Notes: generated from the letters alone by a model not told the origin. A stretch of 64,000 nt of DNA from Leptolyngbyaceae cyanobacterium (GCA_965263355.1 CBDHHL010000049.1:1-64000), one strand, 5' to 3'; numbered from the stretch's first letter, positions 2,518-24,790 are shown. Numbers and translations: made by a program.

Positions 2518-4815
2518 TTAGGATGCTTCCTCAACAACTTCAAAGACAGCAGAAAAGGCTGCTAACCCCTTAGCATCAGAAGCACTTTGACGATTACGTG
2601 TAAAAACTGTACTGCGTGCATTACGATTTAGATCACCTAGCAAGCTATCTAACACCTGTACGGGGGTATCATCGCCTTCATTTAAACCACGGGTCTCACC
2701 TTCCCCAAATGCGATAGGGTTACCTGAGCTTATACCTCGCCCACGGGCCACTTCTTTTAACCCACGTAGGGCATCTCGTAGTTGCTCTGTACTGGCCAGG
2801 ACTAAAAGCTCAAAGTGCCCCGCCGGACCACCGATAACAAAATCAAAGGTACTGTTAATATCAGGAATTGTGATGCGTTGTCCTGCTGCTACCAACGTAT
2901 CAGGTTCTGCTGCATCCCAGGCGACAGGATGTAAAATAATCAGCTGACCTTTACTGTCAATGACCATAATGCTTATATACAGGTCCTGACGCTCATTATT
3001 GGTGACTTCAATCTTGATTTGATCACCTACTTTAACTTGTTGAATGCCTGTATCAATAGTGCGTGCAATAATACCTGTTTCTTGAGCAGCGCGGCTACCT
3101 CGACTAAATAAGACTCCGCCAGAGTCTACCGGAGTAACGTTCACATCTACGTTGAGATCGGAAATATCACTGTTGACTACGGACTTAAGGATACGTCCTG
3201 CCAACAACATTTTCATGCGAGGGCGTAATCGCATAACTGCATTTTCGACCGATTCATTGGGGCGAGAAAACGAGTCAGGAATAGGCGTTAACCCTGGTGT
3301 AAATAAGCCGATACCACCTACAGGAGATGTAATAGTTATGCCTTGGTTTGTTGCTTGTATTTTACTGCTCTCTGTTAATCTACCTATCAGATAGTCAATA
3401 GGTTGAGTTTGATCAACGTTAACTACAGTGACGCGGCTGACATTGGTTAAGGCTTCGAATAGTGCTGCCTTTTCATCTCCTAAGCTGTCATCCACACCGA
3501 CTCTTAGGTTTAAGTCGGCTGGAATACCGCGTACTTGTTCTCGCATGAGCACATTATTACTTGAAATACTACGACTATTGGTGGTTATAGTGCCATAGCC
3601 TTCTAGGCCAGCCCTGCTGTTTTGGACGATTTCACCTATAGGCTTTCCTTCTGAATCAATCAAGTTAAAAATGGCACCTTCCGTGAAGGCTTCAATATTT
3701 TGAGGCGAGACCCCTCCCAACCAAAAGGTGACTTGATTCCCTTCAATTTTGCGAACAACTGCTTCAGCAGATGGCTTTGGTGTCTCTATAAACAACGGTG
3801 GCTTCTGGCCAAAGTTACTATTAGGTTGCACTTCATGGATCGGTTCTTGCTCAATGCCTGCATTTTTGGCAACATCACTAGTGCTACGTGATAGATTTAC
3901 AAATACACTATCTATGGATTGATTACCTACTTGTTGCCAGAGATAGCGGGTTAGTAAATAGGTAAAGGCACCTGCGTTAAAGTCTCCAAAGGGCGCATCT
4001 GCGGCCAGTTGACTAATGCGAGCTGAGCCCAGTGCCATACCTTTTGCAATCCCTGCTCGACGTAAACTGCGTAGCTTGTCAACAGATAAACCGTTACGTT
4101 CTAGCCATATATCCTGATAGGCTAGTTCGATATCAGATGGTTCTACTGCTTCACCATTTAATAATCGATCAGAAACGGAGCGGAAAACCAGATTACCCCG
4201 GATACCTCCTTGGGAATGGCAGCTATCTAAAATAAGGCTGACATTATCTGTTTTTAGGGCATAAGTGAGCAAAAATAAGGTTTTGCCCATGATGTCGTTG
4301 ACTTGATTGCTGCTAGAGGGTAGGTTAGATCGTCCATCGATGGGAACTAATGTTCCGTTTTTGTTATTAAATTCTGGAATACCATTGTTCTCTTTGACTG
4401 TGGAACCATGCCCCGAATAATGGAAAACGACAACATCGCCTGCTTTGGCTTGTCCAATTAAGTGGTCTTCAAAGGCTCCCAATATGTTCTCCCTGGTGGG
4501 CGTAGCCATGATGCGATCGCGTAAAATCCCATTCAGGGGATCGCTGATGATCTTAATGTCGTCAGGGTGAAACCCAAAGCGATGTACTAGTAGCTCATAC
4601 TGCATTTCAACATCAGTCAAGCAGCCGCGTAAAGCTCCCACCTCGTCAGGGTAATTATTAATACCCACCAATAGGGCTAACTTTCTAGGAGTATCTTGAG
4701 CCAACGCCTTACCGTATTGCTCAGACTGGCGTAAAAAATCCGTTTGGCTCAGGCCAATGGATGCCAGGGTAGAGCCGGCAAGTTGTAGAAAATGACGGCG
4801 CTTGAATTGAGGCAT
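2518..4815 (-). CDS. Caspase-family (peptidase C14) protein with Tat-like signal and C-terminal DUF4384-like domain
   Basis: KLALLVGINNY, LRGCLTDV, catalytic HYSGHG and ILDSCHS motifs; N-terminal KRRHFLQ twin-arginine motif; C-terminal VKVGDQIKIEVTNN...LYISIMVIDSKG...LHP domain. Confidence 0.9.
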   Translation of the reverse strand: MPQFKRRHFLQLAGSTLASIGLSQTDFLRQSEQYGKALAQDTPRKLALLVGINNYPDEVGALRGCLTDVEMQYELLVHRFGFHPDDIKIISDPLNGILRDRIMATPTRENILGAFEDHLIGQAKAGDVVVFHYSGHGSTVKENNGIPEFNNKNGTLVPIDGRSNLPSSSNQVNDIMGKTLFLLTYALKTDNVSLILDSCHSQGGIRGNLVFRSVSDRLLNGEAVEPSDIELAYQDIWLERNGLSVDKLRSLRRAGIAKGMALGSARISQLAADAPFGDFNAGAFTYLLTRYLWQQVGNQSIDSVFVNLSRSTSDVAKNAGIEQEPIHEVQPNSNFGQKPPLFIETPKPSAEAVVRKIEGNQVTFWLGGVSPQNIEAFTEGAIFNLIDSEGKPIGEIVQNSRAGLEGYGTITTNSRSISSNNVLMREQVRGIPADLNLRVGVDDSLGDEKAALFEALTNVSRVTVVNVDQTQPIDYLIGRLTESSKIQATNQGITITSPVGGIGLFTPGLTPIPDSFSRPNESVENAVMRLRPRMKMLLAGRILKSVVNSDISDLNVDVNVTPVDSGGVLFSRGSRAAQETGIIARTIDTGIQQVKVGDQIKIEVTNNERQDLYISIMVIDSKGQLIILHPVAWDAAEPDTLVAAGQRITIPDINSTFDFVIGGPAGHFELLVLASTEQLRDALRGLKEVARGRGISSGNPIAFGEGETRGLNEGDDTPVQVLDSLLGDLNRNARSTVFTRNRQSASDAKGLAAFSAVFEVVEEAS

Positions 4816-7263: not shown

Positions 7264-8847
7264 TTGGTGGACAGGTTTACGATGGAATATCAACCGCTTC
7301 CTTCCCTAATTCATCAAATGTTAGAGCCCAGTTTCTATCCCCATTGGACCCAAGACATTATTGAATTAGTGCAAACCCATACTGCCTACGTACTACTGAC
7401 GGGCCGCTATGCTTATAAAGTCAAAAAGCCTGTTGATTATGGGTTTCTCAATTATGCTACTCTGACAGCTCGCAAACACTATGTAGAAGAAGAACTACGG
7501 CTTAATAAGCGTACTGCCGCCGCCATTTATATAGATGCAGTTCCTATTTACCAAATTGGAGAAATATTTAGCCTCTCTGGTGATGGAAAGCCAGTTGAAT
7601 ATGTAGTAAAAATGCATCAGTTTCCAGCTAATTCTCTATTTTCGGATTTGTTAGACCAGGGGCAGCTTACCCCTGAGTTAATGCGATCTCTTGCCCATCA
7701 AGTTGCAGATTTCCATGATCGAGCTATAACCAATGAGTATATTCAATCCTTTGGCATAGTCGAAAAGCTGCGTCCAGCTTTTGAAGAGAACTATCTTCAA
7801 AGTCAATCTTACATTGGGCGTGGTCAAACCCAAAAGCAATTACAAGAAACCAAAGCCTATACAGATGAAGCGTTTACTAAATGGCAAGAGTGTTTTCAAA
7901 ACCGCATTAAGCATAACAAAATTCGTGAATGCCACGGCGATCTACACTTGAGGAATATTTGCCTATGGAAAAATAAAATCTTTCTATTTGACTGTATCGA
8001 ATTTAATGAAGCCTTTCGATATGTTGACACCATGTACGATGTGGCTTTTACCGTCATGGATTGTGACGCTCGGGGACATCATGACTTAGGTTACGCCTTT
8101 CTAAATACCTACTTAGAAGATACCGGAGACTGGGAAGGGCTGGAAGTATTACCGTTGTATCTCAGTCGTCAGGCCTACGTCAGAGCTAAAGTAACTTCAT
8201 TTCTTTTAGATAGATCTAACATGAGCGTTGATCAAACTCAGCATCTCCAAACTCAAGCGCAAGCTTACTATACTCTGGCTTGGCGCTATACTCAACCACA
8301 GTCAGGTAGGTTAATTTTAATGTCTGGCCTATCTGGTTCAGGTAAAAGCACTGTTGCTCGGAAATTAGCATGTCTTATCGGTGCAATCCATATTCGTTCT
8401 GACGCCGTTCGAAAACATCTCGCAGACATTCCTCTTCAACAACGTGGGGATGCAAGTCTCTATACCCCTGTTTTGACCCAGCAAACATATGATCGCTTAT
8501 GCGATTTAGGAATTCGATTAGCAACCCTTGGGTATACCGTTATTCTCGATGCGAAATACGATCGCATTAATAATCGACAAAGAGTATTAAACCAAGCTAA
8601 AGCTGTCAATGTTTCTGCTGCGATTCTAGTGTGTACTGCTCCTCTCGCCGTACTCCGTCAGCGATTGCAACAGCGTACAGATGATATCGCTGATGCTACT
8701 GCCGAGTTACTGACTAGTCAACAGGCAACATCAGAGGCCCTCACTAAGGATGAAAACTCACTAGCAATATATCTTGATACAACCGGCAACCTAGAAGAGG
8801 AAGTCCAAGCAATTGCGACTCAATTGTCTCCAGTCGCAATTACTTAG
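7264..8847 (+). CDS. Bifunctional aminoglycoside-phosphotransferase-like kinase / AAA_33 P-loop protein
   Basis: QTH...AYKVKKPV, ECHGDLHLRNI, FDCIEFN kinase motifs; C-terminal GLSGSGKST Walker A and RSDAVRK. Start may be ATG 7282. Confidence 0.9.
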   Translation: MVDRFTMEYQPLPSLIHQMLEPSFYPHWTQDIIELVQTHTAYVLLTGRYAYKVKKPVDYGFLNYATLTARKHYVEEELRLNKRTAAAIYIDAVPIYQIGEIFSLSGDGKPVEYVVKMHQFPANSLFSDLLDQGQLTPELMRSLAHQVADFHDRAITNEYIQSFGIVEKLRPAFEENYLQSQSYIGRGQTQKQLQETKAYTDEAFTKWQECFQNRIKHNKIRECHGDLHLRNICLWKNKIFLFDCIEFNEAFRYVDTMYDVAFTVMDCDARGHHDLGYAFLNTYLEDTGDWEGLEVLPLYLSRQAYVRAKVTSFLLDRSNMSVDQTQHLQTQAQAYYTLAWRYTQPQSGRLILMSGLSGSGKSTVARKLACLIGAIHIRSDAVRKHLADIPLQQRGDASLYTPVLTQQTYDRLCDLGIRLATLGYTVILDAKYDRINNRQRVLNQAKAVNVSAAILVCTAPLAVLRQRLQQRTDDIADATAELLTSQQATSEALTKDENSLAIYLDTTGNLEEEVQAIATQLSPVAIT

Positions 8848-14827: not shown

Positions 14828-15692
14828 GACCGCGCCTTCCAAGGAAGACATTGAAGCTATCAAACCGATCCTAGAGGACTGGCTAAAGCAAAGGGGACTG
14901 ACATTCAACCTAGAAAAGACGAAAATTGTTCATATCGAACAGGGCTTCGACTTCCTCGGATTTAATGTCAGACAATTCAAAGGCAAATGCCTGATCACCC
15001 CGGCGAAACAGAAGGTGAACGATCTCCTCCAGCGAATCAGAGACTGGCTCTGAGCCAGTCCCTCGCATAAGCCAGAGGTTGTCATCGAACACCTCAATCC
15101 AATTCTCAGAGGATGGGCCAACTACTACAGGCATGTCAATAGTGCCAGGGTCTTCGCTTCCCTCGACCATTACATCTGGCAGGCCATCTTCAAATGGTGC
15201 AGGAGAAGGCATCCCAGAAAAGGGAAACGATGGGTGGTCAACCAATACTTCAAAACGATTCGGGGAAAGAAATGGTACTTTACTGCTCCGGCCATAAGCC
15301 GAGACGGTCGAGTCATCAACTAGAACTACTCTCTGACTCAATTGGCAACCATCCCTATCGAACGCCATGTCAAAGTGATTGGCAAGGCTTCACCAGATGA
15401 CCCTAAGCTCAAAACATACTGGCAACAGCGTCAAACTCGGCAAGGTAAAATTTACTGGGCCAAAGGCTCGAAACACTACCAAGTGGCAGAGAACCAAAAT
15501 TGGCAATGTCCGGTATGTAAAGAACACCTGTTCAACGGAGAGCAACTGCATACCCATCATGTTCTCAACGTGGCAGATGGAGGGACGGACAAAGTTGAAA
15601 ACCTGCTCCACCTCCACAAAGTTTGTCATCAGTACCTACATATGGGACATAACTACCTGAATCGCAGAAGGCTTGAGCCGGATGGCATGTAA
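14828..15692 (+). pseudogene. Group II intron reverse transcriptase/maturase/HNH, 5'-truncated with two in-frame stops
   Basis: Manual translation: TAPSKEDIE...GLTFNLEKTKIVHIEQGFDFLGFNVR (RT6-7), LNPILRGWANYYR (domain X), CPVC...HTHH...GGTDKVENLLHLHKVCH (HNH); TGA at 15051 and TAG at 15321. Confidence 0.92.
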
Positions 15693-15845: not shown

Positions 15846-17846
15846 TTACACGGAACCAGTGCCCTCTAATTTCATCTGGGCAAAATGCTCTAGCAGCATT
15901 CGGTGGACAAAGATGTAGCCACCACCAACCTTTTGTAGAAAAAGGCGTTCGGCAGAATAATCTAAGAAGTGAGCGTAGTTCCAGAGAATATGGTTTTGAT
16001 TATGTAGGGTAAGGCGTAGGTTGAAATGTCGAAAACATGCCCAACCACCGCAAATTAGACCGCAAAATGTCCCGTAGCTTACTCCATTAATCAGGCCAAT
16101 CTTGGATCCATAAATCATCCCAAAAAAGATACCAAATATCAGATTGCTAACTAGTGCAACCAATAAAGCATTCCTGCCTGATTTAATGATGCCTTGGTTA
16201 GGCCGGTTCTTCTTTAGAATAGCTGGACCTCTCAATCCACTGATTAATCCACCTATTAAAATACCGATTAGTAAAATAACCAGTCCAAAGCTCAACCCAG
16301 TAATGAGTCCATCTATGATTCCGTGAGCTAACCCAGCAGCAATCCCATTGAGTAGACCAAGTATTAACCCGACAACTACTCCAAACTTCAATCCATTCAA
16401 ACAACCAGATTTTACGTTTTGCCAAGACCATTTAAGCGTTTCTACAGTCTCAATGTCGCCAGAATGTCCTGCAAAAATTCCTGCCAGTGATAGTATCAGC
16501 CCTATGCCAAGACCATTCGGAATTCCAGTAGTCAGCCCGTGCAACAGAATGTGGATTGGTACGAAAAATAGTGTAAAAACGAATATTCCCGTGAGTACAC
16601 TGATTATCCGATAATTCACTTTGCGGATATAAGTTGGCAAGCAACTTGGCTGTAATCGCTCAACCCAAAAGACTGTTTGCGAAGATTGCATCATCGTCTG
16701 AGCTAACCAGCGTAACCAATACAAAGTTTGCTCTTTGGAATATTGTTGAGTTGTTCCCCTCCGCAAAAACATGCGCTGTATGTAAGCATCAAACAAGCGT
16801 TGATGAAATGTCTCGTCTGTGGTGACATCCTGAAACGTATTCAATGGACACCCATGGTATGCCAGACTCATAATGTTTAAGATCAGAGGCGAGGAAGCAA
16901 ACTGCTTAATATGAGCATTCTGATTAAGCACAGTTTTTAAGGCAGCTAATTGATTACCTGCTTGTTCTAGATATTGGTCGATTTGCTTACTGTCTAGAGG
17001 CTTTACATACAGAGCACTGCGTAGACATAACTGTTCAGGCAGAACCTTATAGTCCTGAATGCGACTGCACACAACCATCTCAGTACGACCATGGGTCTGA
17101 ATAAACTGGTTTAAGGCACGTACGCAAGCATCTCGACACCTAGCATCAACTTCATCCAACCCATCCAACAACAGGATTAACTGCTCATTATCGATCCAGG
17201 CTTGGCCTAATGATCGAGATACCTGGTAGGTTTTATAGAGTTCGCGAATTAGCCATGTGCGAATAGAGTCTCTTTTCTTAGACCAAGACGATAGATTTAC
17301 TAATACTGGTAAGGGTTGACTTAAGTCATTTTCTGAACGGTTAATAAGAGTTTCTGCTAGCTTGAGCAGGGTAACCGTTTTTCCTGAACCAGGCTCTCCT
17401 AAAATCAACAGTGTTCGCCCAGCACCAATATTTTCAAAAAACTCAATGGCTGATGTCCCTTCAGGAAAAACCGCCCGAGAGTCTGAGGAAAATTCGTCCA
17501 CCCCTGCTACGGGCTTAGGGACATAATTGTGGCGCTCTTCTAATCCTAGCTCAATTAAAGTCTGGGTATGTAGCGATTTGGTTAGCACTCCATCAATCCA
17601 AAACTGTTTGACCTTACTCAATAAAACCTGACGCCATTGATGCTCTTCCCGTTTAAGGGGGTGTGCTGCACTCAAGGAAGCTTGTGCTACCTGAACAGTA
17701 CCAAAGACACTAATTGATCCCACACCGCCTTGGATTTGGGTCAGGTTCAAATCACGCCCTGCAATACCACCAATCTGGACAGTTTCTAGAACACTGTCCG
17801 AGATATTGAGCCCCTGACTAGGTTGCTGAGGAGATTGATTACTCAT
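15846..17846 (-). CDS. NACHT-domain NTPase with N-terminal VQIGGIAGRD motif and C-terminal Gly-rich transmembrane region (paralog 2)
   Basis: Walker A GEPGSGKT, Walker B LLLDGLDE; start reassigned to ATG 17846 (MSNQSPQQ), overlapping the upstream stop as ATGA. Confidence 0.9.
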   Translation of the reverse strand: MSNQSPQQPSQGLNISDSVLETVQIGGIAGRDLNLTQIQGGVGSISVFGTVQVAQASLSAAHPLKREEHQWRQVLLSKVKQFWIDGVLTKSLHTQTLIELGLEERHNYVPKPVAGVDEFSSDSRAVFPEGTSAIEFFENIGAGRTLLILGEPGSGKTVTLLKLAETLINRSENDLSQPLPVLVNLSSWSKKRDSIRTWLIRELYKTYQVSRSLGQAWIDNEQLILLLDGLDEVDARCRDACVRALNQFIQTHGRTEMVVCSRIQDYKVLPEQLCLRSALYVKPLDSKQIDQYLEQAGNQLAALKTVLNQNAHIKQFASSPLILNIMSLAYHGCPLNTFQDVTTDETFHQRLFDAYIQRMFLRRGTTQQYSKEQTLYWLRWLAQTMMQSSQTVFWVERLQPSCLPTYIRKVNYRIISVLTGIFVFTLFFVPIHILLHGLTTGIPNGLGIGLILSLAGIFAGHSGDIETVETLKWSWQNVKSGCLNGLKFGVVVGLILGLLNGIAAGLAHGIIDGLITGLSFGLVILLIGILIGGLISGLRGPAILKKNRPNQGIIKSGRNALLVALVSNLIFGIFFGMIYGSKIGLINGVSYGTFCGLICGGWACFRHFNLRLTLHNQNHILWNYAHFLDYSAERLFLQKVGGGYIFVHRMLLEHFAQMKLEGTGSV

Positions 17847-19885
17847 AGCTCCATTGTAGCAAAGTGTTCTAGCAGCATTCGATGGACAAAGATATAGCCA
17901 CCGCCAACTTTTTGGAGGAAGAGATGATCCGTGGCATAATTCAAAAAGCGAGCATAGTTCCAGGGGATGTATCCATTGATATAAAGCATCAATCGCAACA
18001 TAAAGTGTTTGATGCAAGCTAAACTACCCCCCCCGATAAGGCCAATGGCTAAACCAACACTCAAGCCACTGATGATTCCATCGCCGAACTCACCAGTTAT
18101 CCCTCCGGCCAGTCCCCCCACCAGTCCCCCCGTACATCCACCTGCCAGACCAAAAATCCCAGCACTCTTGGCTGACATCCAAATAGCTTGATTGGGAACT
18201 GTCTTGGCTTCAATGTCTAAGCCACCTAGACCATTGGTGATCCCATAGGTTAGACCGGCAATTAGGCCCAATGCTCCATCTAAAGGTCGCACCGTCGTCA
18301 GTGCTCTACGGGCTTGTAGGGCCGCTTTTACTCCAGCGGGCCCCTGATCAATAAATTCAACAATTTGCCCAATCAAAAAACCAGATAATGCACCAATCAG
18401 AGCGTACCGGAGAATCTGATTTCTCGCCGTTTTCCAAGAGTATTTCAAGTTACCAACAGTATTAATGTCAGCTCGGCTAAAGCCAATAACTGTGCCTACA
18501 ATCCCTCCACTCAGTAAGCCGATGATCAATCCTTGGGAGAGGCTATACAATAAGCCCTCATGACGTATGAACACTTCTAAAAGGACTTGACTCATCAATC
18601 CATAAACCATCCCAAAAACAACTCCAATCAGCATCGAAAAACTGACTCGATAGACTAGCTTATGGACTTGTTTGACCAATAAATTTGGCTGCAAAGCCTC
18701 AATCAAAAACATCGTTTGAGACCCTTGATACATCTGCCGTGCCAACCAGATCAGCCAACGGGTAGTTTTTCCTTTAGAATATTGCTGTGTTGTTCCACGT
18801 CGTTGGAACATGCGCTCAATATAGGTATCAAGTAAGCGTCGACTCCATGCTGTAACAGTAGGCAATTGAGGGAGATCTTCCACAGCGCAACTTTCATAAG
18901 CGAGACTCATCACACCTAAAATCAGGGGCGATGAAGCAAATGCTTTGAGATCAGAATTTTCCTGTATAACTGTTTTTAAGGCCTGTAGTTGCTCGCCGGC
19001 CTGTTCTAGGTACCAATCGATTTGTACTGAAGTCAAGGGCTGCACATAAATGGCACTGCGTAGTATTAACTGCTCAGAAAGCGCCTCATAGTCATGAACA
19101 CGGCAACACACCACCATTTCCGTCAAGCCATGGTGCTGGATGAAGTCATTTAAGGCTTTTACACAGGCATTTCGGTATTTCTCCTTTACCTCATCTAGGC
19201 CATCTAACAACAAGATTAATTGTTCCTCTGCAATCCATGCTTGACCTAATGACTTAGAGACTTGATAGGTTTCATAGAGTTCTTGTACTAGCCAATCTGC
19301 AATAGGTTTTTGTTGCTTGCCCCAAGATGATAGGTTTACCACCACCGGTAAGGGCTGGCTTAGGTCATTTTCTGTTCGACTCAGTAGACTTTCTGCCAGT
19401 TTAAGTAAGGTCACTGTTTTACCGGCACCGGGCTCTCCTAAAATCAATAGAGTACGCCCCGCACCAATTTCTTCAAAAACAGCAGCAGCTGATGTGCCGA
19501 TAGGCAAATTTGATCGCGCCTCTGAAGAAAACTCGTTTACCTCTGTTAGAGGATTGGGCACATAGTGATTTCGCTCTTCTAATCCTAGTTCAATTAAAAC
19601 TTGAGTATGTAGTGAGTTGGCTAAGACTCCATCGATCCAAAATTGTTTAACTTTACTAAGCAGAACGCTACGCCATGCATACTCTTTCCGGTTAAGGGAG
19701 TTGGCGGTGCTCAGGGGTGTTTGATCTACTTGAACCGAGCCAAAGACATTGAGCGTTCCCACCTTGCCTTGTATTTGGGTTAAGCGTAGGTCGCGTCCTG
19801 CGATCCCCCCGATTTGGACCGTTTCCAGAGCGCTGTCCGAAATATTGAGGGTCTGATTTGGCTGCTTAGAGAACTGCTCACTCAT
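17843..19885 (-). CDS. NACHT-domain NTPase with N-terminal VQIGGIAGRD motif and C-terminal Gly-rich transmembrane region (paralog 1)
   Basis: Walker A GEPGAGKT, Walker B LLLDGLDE, terminal FLQKVGGGYIFVHRMLLEHFA shared with paralog 2. Confidence 0.9.
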   Translation of the reverse strand: MSEQFSKQPNQTLNISDSALETVQIGGIAGRDLRLTQIQGKVGTLNVFGSVQVDQTPLSTANSLNRKEYAWRSVLLSKVKQFWIDGVLANSLHTQVLIELGLEERNHYVPNPLTEVNEFSSEARSNLPIGTSAAAVFEEIGAGRTLLILGEPGAGKTVTLLKLAESLLSRTENDLSQPLPVVVNLSSWGKQQKPIADWLVQELYETYQVSKSLGQAWIAEEQLILLLDGLDEVKEKYRNACVKALNDFIQHHGLTEMVVCCRVHDYEALSEQLILRSAIYVQPLTSVQIDWYLEQAGEQLQALKTVIQENSDLKAFASSPLILGVMSLAYESCAVEDLPQLPTVTAWSRRLLDTYIERMFQRRGTTQQYSKGKTTRWLIWLARQMYQGSQTMFLIEALQPNLLVKQVHKLVYRVSFSMLIGVVFGMVYGLMSQVLLEVFIRHEGLLYSLSQGLIIGLLSGGIVGTVIGFSRADINTVGNLKYSWKTARNQILRYALIGALSGFLIGQIVEFIDQGPAGVKAALQARRALTTVRPLDGALGLIAGLTYGITNGLGGLDIEAKTVPNQAIWMSAKSAGIFGLAGGCTGGLVGGLAGGITGEFGDGIISGLSVGLAIGLIGGGSLACIKHFMLRLMLYINGYIPWNYARFLNYATDHLFLQKVGGGYIFVHRMLLEHFATMEL

Positions 19886-19898
19886 CGCTCAACTAATC

Positions 19899-20333
19899 TC
19901 AAATTAAAAAGCCTGCAGCCACTCCCAACCACGGACTTAGCGTTTCTAAAATGGGTTGCACTTTCTCCCAAAGACTGGTTCCAGCTTCTACCGTTTCTCC
20001 AGCATCCTTCAAAACCTTGGTTGCTCGCTGTAAGCTCTTAGCTGCAAATTCCTTATCCGGCTCGTCGGCCTGCACTTCATCTTTAGCCGTCTCTATACTT
20101 CGCACTGCCTTTGCTTTCTCTGTGGTTGATAGCTCTGAGCTTTCAAGCAGCGCCTTCAGCTGATCCAATAGATTCGCTACATCCATAGGCGTCAGGGACT
20201 GCTCGGAAACCCCTTCACCAATCTGCTGAGTTTGAGTCACTGATTGATCTCGACCAGCAATGCCACCAATCTGGACATTTGACATCTGCCCGCCACTAAT
20301 CTGAATTGATTGAGATGCCTGATTCTCAGTCAT
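19899..20333 (-). CDS. Small protein with N-terminal VQIGGIAGRD motif and helical C-terminal domain
   Basis: 144-aa ORF with GAGG ribosome-binding site, ending 13 bp upstream of NACHT paralog 1; Q/S/G-rich N-terminus, amphipathic helices, hydrophobic tail. Confidence 0.85.
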   Translation of the reverse strand: MTENQASQSIQISGGQMSNVQIGGIAGRDQSVTQTQQIGEGVSEQSLTPMDVANLLDQLKALLESSELSTTEKAKAVRSIETAKDEVQADEPDKEFAAKSLQRATKVLKDAGETVEAGTSLWEKVQPILETLSPWLGVAAGFLI

Positions 20334-20663: not shown

Positions 20664-21497
20664 TTATAATTGTCCCCTGGCTTTAACTTGCCCATACAGG
20701 GTTTCCATAGCTTTAATAAATGAATTATCCCGATGCCAAAAGGCAGGAAAGTCTCCCTGTTTTTTGATAGGAATCGCTGATACTGGATTTTCTGATAGCG
20801 CCTCTATGGTTTGAGGTAATCGCTTTTTGCCATGCCAAAATTCCCGCAACTCAGTTTTATCAGATACACCCAGAATTTCTGGCGATGCGTAGTAAGAATT
20901 GACTGGTTGCGGTTCGGCCTGTTCCAACTGTAGTTCTGCTGATAGGGCCTGTCCTAAAGGAGACTTTGCCAGTTCTTTTAATAAGTTCTGTCGTGATAAA
21001 CCTCGCAGTTCAAATAACAGAAATGGATCCTGGTCCAGCTCTGCCGCTACTAAATAGTATACCCCGGCAATATGCTTGCATGGATTACTCCAGTCCGGAC
21101 AAGAACAGCTAGTCTTAAAGTCTTTGCGGCTGCCTGGCAATAGGTTCAGGTCCAGTTGTTGAAAGGTTTCTTCTATATTGTCTGGAATCTCGTTGAGTAG
21201 CAGTCGAGAAATAATACTGGCTTTGGATGCCATCAAGGCAATGGCCGCTGACCATTTGGCCTGACTCAGGGGCTGAAATTCAATGGTGATATGGTAAAGA
21301 GGTTCTTTATAGACACCAAAATAAGGGTTAACCGATCCTTGTACCTGGGCTGTGATCAGATTTCCATCAATGTCAAAGCCCTTTACCTTCTTGCCTCGGG
21401 CATAGGAGCGTCCTCGACTAAGGCGACCAGCATCTGTGAGTTTCTCAATGGCAGTGATAAATTGTTGTCCCCACCAGCTACGACTAAATTGACCCAT
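20664..21497 (-). CDS. SWIM zinc-finger protein
   Basis: CSCPDWSNPCKH SWIM motif, GRLSRGRSYARG N-terminal motif, DPFLLFELRG. Confidence 0.92.
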   Translation of the reverse strand: MGQFSRSWWGQQFITAIEKLTDAGRLSRGRSYARGKKVKGFDIDGNLITAQVQGSVNPYFGVYKEPLYHITIEFQPLSQAKWSAAIALMASKASIISRLLLNEIPDNIEETFQQLDLNLLPGSRKDFKTSCSCPDWSNPCKHIAGVYYLVAAELDQDPFLLFELRGLSRQNLLKELAKSPLGQALSAELQLEQAEPQPVNSYYASPEILGVSDKTELREFWHGKKRLPQTIEALSENPVSAIPIKKQGDFPAFWHRDNSFIKAMETLYGQVKARGQL

Positions 21498-21511
21498 GGT
21501 ATTGCTCCCCC

Positions 21512-24500
21512 TTATTCCATAATTGCGCTTTTGTTCAATGAAATTAGCTGTCTAAAGGCATTGTCATCTAGTTCCGTTAGCCAGGATTCATCAGAACCGA
21601 CAATGGAACCAGCCAATTTCTTTTTGTCTTCAATCATTTCGTCAATGCGTTCTTCCAGGGTGCCTATGGCGACAAACTTGTGGACGAACACGTTCTTTTT
21701 TTGGCCAATGCGAAAGGCACGATCCGTTGCTTGATCTTCTACTGACGGGTTCCACCAGCGGTCAAAGTGAAATACATGGTTGGCTTTGGTCAGGGTAATG
21801 CCCACACCACCAGCTTTTAAGGATAATACAAATACGGAGGGTTCTGTGTCTGGATCTTGGAATTCGGCAATCATGGCCTCACGCTTCTTTCGGGAGGTAC
21901 CCCCATGGAGATAATAGGTATGACAATGGAATGTTTGGCGGATGTATTTCTCTAGGGCGTTGCCGAGTTCGGTAAATTGGGTAAAGATCAGCAGACTATC
22001 GCGTTCTGCCCTGGCTTCTTCAATCATTTCGGTAAGGCGAGTGAGTTTGTGCGATCGCACCGCCGTAAACTCGCTGTCATCTTGCAAAAACTGTCGGGGG
22101 TGATTACACACCTGTTTTAGCTTGGTTAACGTACTTAAAATCAGACCTTTCCGTTGAATTCCTTCCACTTCCTGTAATTGCTGCTCTACATCTTTGACGA
22201 CGGCTTCATATAGCGAGGCCTGTTCTTTAGTCAAGTTACAGAACAGCTTTTGTTCCACCTTATCCGGCAGGTCTTTAATAATCGACTGATCTGTTTTTAC
22301 CCGTCGTAAGATAAAGGGTTCCACTAGCTTTTTGAGGGTGGCAGACTGACGGGGATCGTTGTTTTTTTGAATCGGTACCTCAAAACTTTTGCGAAATTGG
22401 GTTTGATTACCCAAATACCCCGGATTCAAAAAGTGAAAAATAGACCATAGATCCAGCAGTCGATTCTCAATCGGGGTGCCAGTGAGGGCCAGCCGATGGT
22501 GGGCCGAGAATTTACAAATGGCCTTGGTTAGAGCGGCTTTTGGGTTCTTAATATTTTGGGCTTCGTCCAGCACAATGCGGTGCCATTCAATTTGGTTAAA
22601 CAGTTTGGCATCTTTACGGGCCAGGGCAAAGGAGGTAATGATAATATCATGGTCACGACAGGCTTGTTTGAAGATTTTGGCGTCTTTGGCCCGCTCACTA
22701 CCATGGTGGACCGTTGCTGTAATGTGGGGCGCAAACTTTTGGATCTCCCGTCGCCAATTGCCAACAACGGAGGTAGGCGCAATCAATAGGGTAGGAGGTA
22801 GTTGGCTCTCTTTGGTGGCAGATTTAACCGTTTGCTTGCGACGTCCTTTCTGCGGTTTCTCAGGTTCGCGCTCCTGCACCAGACGGGCAATCACCTGGAC
22901 CGTTTTACCGAGACCCATATCATCTGCCAGACAGCCATTTAACCCCAGCTCTTCCAAATATTGTAGCCAGGATACACCGCGCTTTTGATACTCCCGTAGT
23001 TGTCCTTCAAAGCTATCGGGATTATCTACGGGGTGTAACTTAGTTTTATCGCTCAGCTTATTAAGCATGTCGGCGAGAATGTCTTTGCGATCGCACTCCA
23101 CCTCCAGTTCATCGTCCTTCCCCTTTGCCGTCAGCTTCATAAAGTCCAACAGCGACAACTCTGGATTTTCCTCCTGGTGTGTTTTCCAAAACTCCAGCAT
23201 CTGTTGCATCTTGTCCTGGTCCAGCTCTATCCACTGTCCCCGAAACTGAACCAAGGGTGTTTTCGCATTTACTAATTGGTGCCACTCTTTCTCGCTTACC
23301 TGTTCATCACCGATGGCCAGCTCATATTGGTACTCCACCAACCGCTCCAACGAGAAATAGCGCTTAGATTTATCTTTGCCTTCTGAGAGTGATTTTCCTT
23401 TAGCTTTGAGGCGGACTTTGGCTCGCTGTCGTCCCTGTGGTGTCCACCAGGCCGGGACAACTACCTTGTAACCCGCATTTTCCAGAATCCAGGCAGATTC
23501 TTTGAGGAAGTTGAATGCCTCATCCAAAGCTAACTGAATACCTACCGGCTGGTCTGTTTCCAACCCTTGCCATAGGGCTGAATAGATGCGAGATGCGTAG
23601 CCCAGGTTGAGCAACAGGTTTTGTTCAAAGTCCTGCCCTAATTGTTTTTGAACCTGCTTCTGTTGCTTGGTACCCATACGCCAATAATCATCTAGGGGTA
23701 ACTTGAGTGAGGGATCGTCCTTGGGGGCAACTTCAAATAAGAGCTGCCAGGGATCCTCAGGCTTAAGTGGGTCTTGTAAATGAAAGTACAGGTAGAAAGG
23801 CTGATTGGTTTGGGTGCGAACGATGAGATCGCGCCATGCCTGCCATTGTTGATACTGCCCCAACCCCTGTGATTGTGGCCAAACATTTAAGGAGAAACAA
23901 TGCGTCAGAATAGAGCCTGAGATAGTATTCTCAAACGCTTTTGTCAGCTGAGTATGGGTAACAATTTCAGTGAGCAAACATTCAGAAAAATGACGTAGTA
24001 ACGATAATCGATCATATAGCTGTGGTTCTTCACAGGGATCCACAAACCCCGCAGCACACATCAGCGGCATATACTCGACATACTGTTCTAGTAGAGTTTT
24101 ATACTCCTCGCCAATAAATTCCCATCCCCCATAGATTTCAAAGGAATGAAATGGCTCGCCACTGGTCGATTGTTTTCCCTTATCTGCAGATCGTTTTTGG
24201 GATGACGACCTTTTTTTTGACGTCTGGTGTTTAACTGTTTCCAGGAGGCGATACTTGAGTGAAGGAATGTAATGGTCCTTTAACATCACCCGTTTTAATG
24301 CTTGGGTAAAATGGAACCAAAATAGTAGGTCATTCCCTAACTGCAGCTCACTTAGATTATGTAACGTTAGAAAATGAAGTTCATTGAGTAACGGAATGAG
24401 AGAAGTGCTGCCCAATTTACTTTTGACAGGCACGGCACATGCAATTGGGCAACAATCCACTTCCCAATATTCGAACTCAAAGCTGTCTGGTAGCTCTATC

Positions 24501-24790
24501 TCCAGATAACGCGACAGTTCTAAGGATGGTAGCGGCTGATCATCAACGGTCGGCAATAAAAAATAGCAAGGCTCTATCCAGTCCTCCAGGGGCGTATTTT
24601 CGGGAGACCGAATTTTAAACTCATTTGTCAGTAAGTCTGCTAGCTCTTCACCCCCTAGTTGCAGTGGGTAACAGCCCTGCTCTTCAAGCATTGGTTTCTT
24701 TTCAGTGGTCTCTACCCAAAGATAAAACTGGCCTGCTTGGATAAAATCAGCTCCAGGTTCAGGGAGCCAGGTACCATGAAGAATTTGCAT
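21512..24790 (-). CDS. SNF2-family (SWI2/SNF2) helicase-like ATPase
   Basis: LREYQKRG, LADDMGLGKT, LDEAQNIKN, LTGTPIEN, SLKAGGVGITLT, QATDRAFRIGQ. Confidence 0.95.
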   Translation of the reverse strand: MQILHGTWLPEPGADFIQAGQFYLWVETTEKKPMLEEQGCYPLQLGGEELADLLTNEFKIRSPENTPLEDWIEPCYFLLPTVDDQPLPSLELSRYLEIELPDSFEFEYWEVDCCPIACAVPVKSKLGSTSLIPLLNELHFLTLHNLSELQLGNDLLFWFHFTQALKRVMLKDHYIPSLKYRLLETVKHQTSKKRSSSQKRSADKGKQSTSGEPFHSFEIYGGWEFIGEEYKTLLEQYVEYMPLMCAAGFVDPCEEPQLYDRLSLLRHFSECLLTEIVTHTQLTKAFENTISGSILTHCFSLNVWPQSQGLGQYQQWQAWRDLIVRTQTNQPFYLYFHLQDPLKPEDPWQLLFEVAPKDDPSLKLPLDDYWRMGTKQQKQVQKQLGQDFEQNLLLNLGYASRIYSALWQGLETDQPVGIQLALDEAFNFLKESAWILENAGYKVVVPAWWTPQGRQRAKVRLKAKGKSLSEGKDKSKRYFSLERLVEYQYELAIGDEQVSEKEWHQLVNAKTPLVQFRGQWIELDQDKMQQMLEFWKTHQEENPELSLLDFMKLTAKGKDDELEVECDRKDILADMLNKLSDKTKLHPVDNPDSFEGQLREYQKRGVSWLQYLEELGLNGCLADDMGLGKTVQVIARLVQEREPEKPQKGRRKQTVKSATKESQLPPTLLIAPTSVVGNWRREIQKFAPHITATVHHGSERAKDAKIFKQACRDHDIIITSFALARKDAKLFNQIEWHRIVLDEAQNIKNPKAALTKAICKFSAHHRLALTGTPIENRLLDLWSIFHFLNPGYLGNQTQFRKSFEVPIQKNNDPRQSATLKKLVEPFILRRVKTDQSIIKDLPDKVEQKLFCNLTKEQASLYEAVVKDVEQQLQEVEGIQRKGLILSTLTKLKQVCNHPRQFLQDDSEFTAVRSHKLTRLTEMIEEARAERDSLLIFTQFTELGNALEKYIRQTFHCHTYYLHGGTSRKKREAMIAEFQDPDTEPSVFVLSLKAGGVGITLTKANHVFHFDRWWNPSVEDQATDRAFRIGQKKNVFVHKFVAIGTLEERIDEMIEDKKKLAGSIVGSDESWLTELDDNAFRQLISLNKSAIME

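Follow-up and report, generated by a model that had tools for sequence, protein, structure and literature searches.

A cyanobacterial operon that joins a small helical protein to two membrane-region NACHT proteins through a shared N-terminal motif: a candidate NLR-associated amyloid-signalling module

We looked at a three-gene operon of a Leptolyngbyaceae cyanobacterium, located at positions 15846..20333 of a 64,000-nt stretch of DNA (GCA_965263355.1 CBDHHL010000049.1:1-64000, hereafter the window), in which a small protein, A, and two NACHT NTPases, B and C, carry the same motif close to their N-termini. That NOD-like receptors (NLRs) can signal to cell-death effectors in an amyloid or prion-like manner is established for fungi and, more recently, for one antiphage pair of E. 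coli. Sequence comparisons directly support a specific homotypic link between the N-terminus of the receptors and A, and we lean towards reading the operon as a receptor-effector module of the NLR-associated amyloid-signalling (BASS-like) kind, with a role in cell death or defence.

The three open reading frames (ORFs) lie head-to-tail on the minus strand. A and B are separated by 13 nt, and at the junction of B and C the stop codon TGA overlaps the start codon ATG in the sequence ATGA. A longer, TTG-initiated ORF for C is unlikely to reflect the true start because it overlaps with B. The spacing of the genes suggests that A, B, and C are co-transcribed; a scan of the operon for promoters and terminators gave no signal above shuffled sequences. 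The original prediction, made from the sequence of the window, had proposed this three-gene unit, and its ORFs, coordinates, gap, and junction were all recovered. It had also pointed to the decapeptide VQIGGIAGRD, which is present with the codons it gave at 20247-20276 in A (aa 20-29), 19790-19819 in B, and 17751-17780 in C, within the flanking context Q-x-(I/L)-x-I-S ... x-x-(V/L)-T-Q-x-Q, so that the stretch shared at the N-termini covers about 35 residues. Between A and B, nine of the ten decapeptide codons differ and every change is synonymous; as predicted, it is the peptide and not the DNA that is conserved, which indicates that purifying selection acts on the motif peptide. Outside the motif, the small protein is unrelated to the NACHT proteins, as had also been claimed: when A and B were compared by BLASTP, the N-terminus alone aligned (24/59 identical, E 3e-8). 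B and C align from end to end with 55% identity and are paralogues. The motif does lie at the N-terminus of the small protein, and the arrangement of two receptors for one effector recurs, at loci L001 and L008.

The coupling of the motif to neighbouring genes was studied in 36 loci that all encode relatives of A, namely the window, 7 loci from species genomes, and 28 from metagenomes. Their ORFs were scanned with the A-family profile (A1) at E<=1e-3, a match being defined as profile positions ~3-40 at the N-terminus of the ORF. In 30 of the 36 loci, a hidden Markov model (HMM) detects the motif at the N-terminus of the same-strand ORF that starts just downstream of A. The partners in L006, L031, L032, and L033 have a motif that has diverged below the threshold but can still be recognised by eye as this element. 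The planctomycete locus L007 differs in that the stretch common to A and the adjacent 805-aa protein is another one, rich in Q and N. The last locus, L034, is uninformative, with a truncated A gene and no downstream ORF listed.

Where the motif has changed, it has changed on both partners. The motif reads VQFGG in the A protein of L023 and FQFGG in the NB-ARC+TPR protein paired with it, L032 has lost one G and has N for D on both sides, L031 has an insertion on both sides, and L033 has GQVGQAG on both sides. A second class of motif, Q[IV]GQAG.D, is found on A and on the NACHT protein in L051-L053. Several loci are identical copies, so that 33 pairs were reduced to 28 distinct ones; their N-termini gave a mean Smith-Waterman score of 77.8 for cognate against 65.9 for non-cognate pairs, and none of 20,000 shuffles of the pairing reached the observed cognate sum, the paired sequences being related and hence not independent observations. 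The motif is also present in repeated copies on one side of some pairs, on the receptor in L031 and L051 and on A in L033. The co-occurrence of small ORF and motif-bearing NACHT gene that the original prediction had anticipated is therefore found, by HMM in the 30 loci and by parallel changes in the diverged pairs.

The majority of the partners of A are NACHT proteins with a transmembrane (TM) region. Others are an NB-ARC+TPR protein (L023), an nSTAND1+WD40 protein (L033), a WD40 protein (L026), and a short NB-ARC protein. It had been claimed that the NLRs of this system lack TPR or WD repeats; this holds for B and C, which have no repeat match, but TPR and WD40 receptors are among the partners of A relatives. 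The WD40 protein downstream of A in L026 (L026:1723-4158) bears the motif and has no recognisable NTPase domain; its motif match lies ~108 residues into the ORF, and its true start is uncertain because the stop-to-stop frame opens with a transposase-like fragment. In L013 (L013:4449-6557), the receptor downstream of A is split into ORFs of 89 and 603 aa, probably by a frameshift or through an error in sequencing. Proteins of ~281-288 aa (L006:2749-3615 and L050:2041-2886) with a diverged motif at the N-terminus (..GGQAGEN.. / ..PGQAGKD..) form a second class of partner; of these, the L006 protein was scanned and gave no Pfam or PADLOC match. The planctomycete locus (L007:516-3417) encodes a distant homologue of A, 38% identical and without the cyanobacterial motif, followed by an 804-aa protein with a weak ApeA_NTD1 match.

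The motif is almost confined, as far as profile searches indicate, to A-family proteins and to the N-termini of STAND NTPases. An alignment of 39 motif sequences (A3), from which only Q-x-G-G..G.D emerges as invariant and in which the residue before Q varies (V, A, S, F, T), gave a motif profile of 47 positions. Against 1,835,955,588 cluster representatives, this profile found 70 matches at E<=1e-3, of which 65 look genuine; the sharing of the motif in the operon is well outside what coincidence would give. The 70 comprise 21 proteins with a NACHT domain, 1 with NB-ARC, 2 with TIR, and 1 with CHAT, and 15 with an A domain; the remaining ones are mostly short fragments, with N-termini of the A type or the receptor type. 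Three representatives of ~266-272 aa (P0185, P0195, P0199) resemble at their N-terminus the partners in L006 and L050 and have no Pfam match. When residues 1-60 of B were searched among shorter proteins, only 3 fragments were found. Four whole genomes were also scanned, these being genomes behind related loci and not that of the window. Among 14 matches, 13 fall in A-family or NACHT-type genes: 11 are adjacent A and receptor genes, 1 is an A gene with a diverged partner, and 1 is an orphan NACHT-TM receptor, the fourteenth being a 68-aa ORF. In one of these genomes there are three A genes and four receptors, and an insertion sequence interrupts one of the receptors. A wide occurrence of the motif in unrelated proteins, uncoupled from neighbouring genes, would have told against the original prediction, and neither the genomes nor the cluster representatives show it. 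In a sample of 401 cyanobacterial genomes, all four new loci consist of an A gene followed by a motif-carrying partner.

Some matches stand apart from these. The orphan NACHT-TM receptor (L049, G001:C1:69652-72783) carries the motif with no A gene upstream, and the same genome holds an A/receptor pair whose receptor is cut to 305 aa beside a transposase gene (L040, G001:C12:263-3397). The 68-aa ORF (L045, G002:C317:8704-8808) matches the motif profile weakly (E 1.4e-6) and lies outside any A/receptor operon. Five large surface-repeat proteins of 1522-4318 aa (P0153, P0158, P0173, P0194, P0200) match only positions ~23-44, 5-10 times each, and are regarded as unrelated; the G-G..G.D core is similar to a unit that recurs in beta-rich proteins of no relation.

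B and C are true NACHT (NLR-like) proteins with a membrane region. Their Pfam NACHT scores are 37.0 and 41.4 bits, respectively, for a curated cut-off of 26.7. The strings GEPGAGKT and LLLDGLDE of B, which we take to be Walker A and Walker B, lie in columns (GEPG[AS]GKT and LLLDGLDE) that are invariant in 14 receptors. With 14 homologues as input, AlphaFold2 gave a model of B whose mean predicted local distance difference test (pLDDT) score is 72.8, with a confident NACHT core and values <50 for aa 1-62, and Foldseek aligned this model to NOD2, NLRC4, and NLRP3 (E 2e-7 to 1e-4, probability 1.00, ~360-375 aligned columns). In the membrane region of B, seven helices are predicted (406-439, 445-470, 484-513, 520-551, 566-597, 600-617, 620-636), and the Kyte-Doolittle profile shows at least four strong and two weaker membrane-type segments. 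This region is the least conserved part of the receptors: B and C share 29% of its residues, the mean for 91 receptor pairs is 21%, and two short conserved loops interrupt it in the receptor alignment. Identity rises to 56-67% in the NACHT part and to 63-69% over the last 55 residues. The NACHT proteins had been described as ending in TM helices, which has to be corrected: in B, the hydrophobic region (aa ~406-636) is followed by a conserved soluble segment of ~45-55 aa. If the usual NACHT anatomy applies, this segment probably completes the winged-helix part of the NACHT module. C-terminal repeat families (TPR, WD, LRR) gave no Pfam match in B or C, and the hydrophobic multi-helix region stands in their place.

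A has at least 143 homologues, nearly all of ~144 aa, cyanobacterial where named, and conserved over their whole length. In an alignment of 26 of them, the motif residues Q21, G24, G27, D29, and Q36 are invariant, and conservation is also strong in the helical domain and the tail, where the mean column identity is 66%. The AlphaFold2 model of A predicts four helices (49-64, 70-87, 94-114, 116-136) with block pLDDT of 70-89 over aa 51-140, and aa 1-44, which include the motif, have pLDDT <50 and are thus predicted to be disordered. The C-terminal tail is hydrophobic, its last 11 residues having a mean hydropathy of 1.76, and W135, G137, and F142 are invariant or nearly so. Pfam returned no family above threshold for A, DUF7019 being a weak match (18.6 bits for a cut-off of 22, E 1.7e-3), and HeLo-like families were absent from the matches of A, B, and C at E<=1. 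Residues 9-134 match positions 153-264 of the 267 of the PADLOC profile PDC-M14B (E 3e-10), a likeness that reflects a shared C-terminal domain of 112 positions and not the full-length profile; PDC-M14A has no match in B or C. No sequence or fold match of A to a solved chain was found: the best hit of its profile among PDB sequences was one designed protein at a meaningless E of 0.21, a Foldseek search of the PDB produced nothing at E<=1e-3, its hits being generic four-helix bundles only, and a wide VIA-align search likewise gave only generic four-helix bundles, the best Z of 11.1 being below the meaningful level for helical bundles. An ESM Atlas look-up with aa 45-144 (best score 0.88) led to cyanobacterial clusters and to DUF4404, and is taken as a lead only. 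Two other identities were considered for A. The label of an ElaB/YqjD/DUF883 tail-anchored protein, given by JGI to 3 homologues, was rejected, with no DUF883 match at E<=1 and no TM window of 1.2 or more; EACC1 (Kaur et al.) was dropped.

A also forms the C-terminal end of longer proteins, in which the motif separates it from a preceding TIR or CHAT domain. TIR-motif-A fusions make up six clusters, of ~308-327 aa (P0126-P0130, P0132). In L033 (L033:3248-6754), one protein combines a CHAT domain, two motif copies, and an A domain, and next to it is encoded an nSTAND1+WD40 protein whose motif shows the matching variant and whose WD40 repeats are nearly identical among themselves. Pentapeptide repeats precede A in P0131 and P0134, the latter with a different beta-like stretch in place of the motif, and in P0179 the motif stands directly before a TIR domain. 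A constant effector-like module combined with variable receptors and with links to TIR and caspase-like domains is, by comparison with published systems, the pattern described for amyloid signalling motifs; the same modular pattern has also been described for effector-associated domain (EAD) adaptors.

The amyloid nature of the interaction, in whose place a beta contact without amyloid would serve equally well, is suggested by resemblance, in length, composition, predicted disorder, repeated copies, and genomic grammar. In the available part of their work, Dyrka et al. 2020 (bioRxiv 10.1101/2020.01.06.895854) describe BASS motifs as stretches of ~20-40 aa that are rich in Q, N, G, V, and I and depleted of K, P, and L. 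The motif here, with ~25-35 aa and much Q, G, I, V, and S, is similar; the likeness is closest for A (33 residues with Q8 G6 S5 I5 V2 and no K, P, or L) and weaker on the receptor side. A complex prediction with two copies each of B-type aa 1-62 and A aa 1-48 (score 0.02, mark 0.32) weighs neither way.

We infer direct binding, the direction of signalling, sensing by the membrane region, and the function of A, and propose the following sequence of events. B and C would be membrane-embedded NACHT (NLR-like) switches whose variable multi-helix region is the likely sensor, for instance of a perturbation of the membrane or envelope during infection. Oligomerisation of the NACHT proteins would bring their disordered, Q/G-rich N-terminal motifs together and let them adopt a beta-rich, probably cross-beta, fold, which would recruit and convert the matching N-terminal motif of A. 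Once clustered, the four-helix bundle and C-terminal tail of A could switch to a membrane-active or otherwise toxic state, the outcome being regulated cell death or abortive infection. More tentatively, at somewhat less than even confidence, the operon may represent an undescribed prion-like family of mirrored topology, in which an N-terminal templating motif drives a four-helix effector with a membrane-seeking tail, the same cassette being used behind TIR and CHAT domains and served by membrane NACHT as well as TPR/WD40 NLRs. If so, two diverged membrane sensors would feed one effector, and an NLR would read the state of the membrane and relay it by amyloid templating.

Several points weigh against the amyloid-signalling reading or parts of it. 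The receptor-side motif is less amyloid-typical than that of A because it contains 4 L, plus 1 K in B. The strings QIGGI and QIGGQ were absent, by string look-up, from the examined part of the BASS1-10 data set. The system is rare, with motif matches in 5 of the 401 sampled cyanobacterial genomes, one of which is the genome at the centre of the search. It is the diverged loci that supply the pair-specific signal; in the main clade, the cognate partner ranks in mid-field among the 28 (ranks 8-19 for many pairs) because the motif is so conserved there. A does not have the Bell arrangement, since the order in A is N-terminal motif, helical domain, and C-terminal hydrophobic segment. The proposal is weakest where it makes A the executioner, because A has no classical TM helix (no 19-residue window reaches a hydropathy of 1.2) and its four-helix fold is generic. 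Moreover, A could be an anchor or regulator and not a killer, because the TIR and CHAT fusions already hold an enzymatic effector. Finally, adjacency, co-variation, and specificity would fit any direct homotypic contact equally well.

This last point leads to the strongest rival, which we hold to be unlikely, though well worth considering: the motif could be a homotypic adaptor without amyloid, a defined, stoichiometric contact by beta-sheet or hairpin with no self-propagating templating, similar to that of EADs or Death domains, that docks A, TIR-A, or CHAT-A on an oligomerised NACHT protein. In the available text of Kaur et al. 2020 (PMC7159879), EADs follow the same logic, with one module on the NTPase and one on the neighbouring effector, and with adjacent copies most alike. 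EADs are folded, however, whereas the motif here has ~35 residues, is Q/G-rich and predicted to be disordered, and is BASS-like; furthermore, its one-sided repeated copies (L031, L051, L033) recall the pseudo-repeats that the accessible part of Dyrka et al. 2020 (10.1101/2020.01.06.895854) describes for BASS1/6 and HRAM.

Rather improbable, in our view, is that A is not the executioner and serves as a membrane tether, a chaperone-like cap, or a negative regulator, killing being left to the membrane region of the receptor or to the fused TIR or CHAT domain. The position of A behind these domains and its generic fold without a classical TM helix would suit such a role, as would the 4-7 hydrophobic, Gly-rich helices of the NACHT proteins, which have a sub-threshold match to the glycine-zipper family PF13441 (E 0.0023). 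On the other side, A is the sole non-receptor gene in most loci, and it is the helical domain and tail of A that are strongly conserved, while the membrane region of the receptors is the least conserved part. A pairs, moreover, with soluble NB-ARC+TPR and nSTAND1+WD40 receptors, and in those pairs receptor membrane helices are unable to explain killing.

It is very improbable that the motif serves the sorting or processing of its carriers, for example as a leader of the double-glycine type or as a protease site, and has no part in interaction. The invariant G-G does lie ~25 residues from the N-terminus with hydrophobic residues before it, but the residues after GG (x-A-G-x-D, T-Q-x-Q) are conserved equally to those before, the operon has no peptidase or exporter gene, the carriers include multi-pass NACHT proteins of 650-830 aa, and the motif is internal in the TIR and CHAT fusions; its hydrophobic spacing also appears unlike the double-glycine leader consensus, and a leader of this type was rejected. 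That the motif is a functionless leftover of common ancestry or gene conversion is likewise very improbable, since this would suit the paralogues B and C but not A, which is unrelated to them outside the motif, differs from B by synonymous changes in nine of ten codons, and has kept the motif in homologues down to 53% identity, with deviations mirrored in the partners.

The features of the operon are collected in Table 1.

Table 1. Genes and protein segments of the operon, in window coordinates; residue numbers refer to the protein named.
Feature	Position	Strand	Description
Gene A	19899..20333	-	144 aa, putative effector; ORF and translation
Effector-side motif of A	20217..20315	-	aa 7-39, includes VQIGGIAGRD
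Helical domain of A	19926..20189	-	aa 49-136, predicted four-helix bundle (AlphaFold2)
C-terminal hydrophobic tail of A	19902..19937	-	aa ~133-144, conserved as PWLGVA..F...
Gene B	17843..19885	-	680 aa, NACHT NTPase with N-terminal motif and membrane region, receptor 1
Receptor-side motif of B	19760..19858	-	aa 10-42, includes VQIGGIAGRD
NACHT NTPase core of B	19007..19456	-	aa 144-293, Pfam
Hydrophobic Gly-rich multi-helix region of B	17978..18670	-	aa ~406-636, putative membrane-embedded sensor
Conserved soluble C-terminal segment of B	17846..17977	-	aa 637-680, helix/beta-hairpin/helix, pLDDT 80-89
Gene C	15846..17846	-	666 aa from the ATG overlapping the TGA of B, NACHT paralogue, receptor 2
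Receptor-side motif of C	17721..17819	-	aa 10-42, includes VQIGGIAGRD
Hydrophobic multi-helix region of C	16044..16622	-	aa ~409-601, 5-6 Kyte-Doolittle segments

Directly upstream of A and on the same strand, the window encodes a SWIM zinc-finger protein (277 aa) and an SNF2 helicase with DUF3670 (1092 aa), at 20664-24790 (-). Just downstream of C, a 116-aa ORF with an HNH endonuclease domain (15342-15692, +) lies among many short overlapping ORFs and is possibly the remnant of a mobile element. Two other conflict-type genes lie within 15 kb of the operon and encode a 765-aa caspase-domain (Peptidase_C14) protein with DUF4384 (2518-4815, -) and a 527-aa AAA_33/zeta-toxin-like kinase with an APH-like region (7264-8847, +). 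In the relatives, the neighbours include N-termini of Tn3-type transposases and ParA-like genes, named by eye from ORF listings. This context fits a mobile accessory system and does not by itself demonstrate a role in defence.

The operon points to a second effector family with its own motif class and with modular use behind TIR and CHAT domains, a family invisible to motif screens of effector C-termini because its motif is N-terminal, and it links the idea of amyloid-type signalling to membrane-embedded NACHT proteins. With an effector of 144 aa, a motif of ~35 aa, and the invariant core Q-x-G-G..G.D, the system is compact and would therefore make a simple test bed for asking whether bacteria have membrane-sensing NLRs, whether templating can proceed from either end of an effector, and how paralogous receptors keep or share motif specificity.

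Among the closest known systems are pairs of a sensor and a small helical protein. According to the part of the BASS literature available, BASS1-10/Bell pairs have, like the operon, a short Q/G/V/I-rich motif on the N-terminus of a NACHT or NB-ARC protein and an adjacent collinear small helical protein, tiny gaps or overlaps between the genes, cyanobacterial occurrence, a patchy distribution, and some repeated motif copies. They differ in that the effector motif is N-terminal in A and C-terminal in Bell proteins, in that A has a hydrophobic tail at its C-terminus in place of the Bell-type N-terminal hydrophobic helix, and in that B and C have a membrane region in the place of TPR or WD repeats. 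The nearest likeness found by string comparison is to cluster C01, whose BASS1-type sequences have QAGRD..[VI]T in common with the motif. A recent methods paper also gives motifs at NLR N-termini and effector C-termini as the paradigm. The antiphage abortive-infection pair Bab/Agp (BASS11) of E. coli, as far as the accessible text of Ibarlosa et al. 2024 (bioRxiv 10.1101/2024.11.07.622273) goes, is similarly a two-gene unit of a sensor and a small helical cell-death protein sharing an amyloid motif, and BASS11 is reported beside TIR, CHAT, NACHT, and NB-ARC domains, as is the motif here; unlike that of A, the Bab motif is C-terminal, and the N-terminal helix of Bab is the membrane-active part.

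In fungal NWD2/HET-S, oligomerisation of the NLR templates a prion-like motif on a helical, membrane-targeting executioner encoded by the adjacent gene. The logic proposed for A, B, and C is the same as in this and other NLR/HeLo pairs. HET-S consists of a hydrophobic helix, a bundle, and a motif, whereas the order in A is motif, bundle, and hydrophobic tail, and the two have no sequence relation. The original prediction had called the motif RHIM-like, and the tetrapeptide V-Q-I-G of the window motif is its point of likeness to RHIM (RIPK1/RIPK3), fungal PP, and BASS3. The link is limited to this tetrapeptide: the Pfam matches of A, B, and C at E<=1 do not include RHIM (PF12721), and Q-x-G-G..G.D is all that stays invariant across the family. 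In the available part of Dyrka et al. 2020 (10.1101/2020.01.06.895854), the signature of RHIM/PP/BASS3 is G-phi-Q-phi-G, of which the window has phi-Q-phi-G, as VQIG, but not the leading G, the residue before VQIG being N or T. Homology of the motif to RHIM is not supported by these comparisons.

The accessible text of Kaur et al. 2020 (PMC7159879) presents EADs as small folded alpha or alpha+beta domains. The operon resembles these systems in its duplicated small element, present on a core NTPase and on an adjacent effector with adjacent copies most alike, and in a repertoire that includes TIR and caspase-like effectors. It differs in that its motif of ~35 aa is of low complexity and predicted to be disordered, with pLDDT <50 and no predicted helices, and no EAD family was among the Pfam matches of the operon proteins at E<=1. 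Bacterial NACHT proteins with TM regions have been described by Kibby et al. 2022 (10.1101/2022.07.19.500537); unlike for B and C, the available text mentions no shared N-terminal motif or small partner for them, and the words 'amyloid' and 'Bell' occur in it 0 times each. A literature search, whose reach did not extend to preprint supplements with full motif-pair lists, returned nothing on DUF7019, PDC-M14, or four motif strings, and no BASS12 or BASS13 appeared in an amyloid context among the papers listed. Altogether, the effector family, the N-terminal position of its motif, the motif class, and the coupling to NACHT proteins with a membrane region appear to be new, a prior listing being possible, within a kind of system that is itself known from BASS1-10 with Bell domains, BASS11 in Bab/Agp, and fungal HET-S/NWD2.

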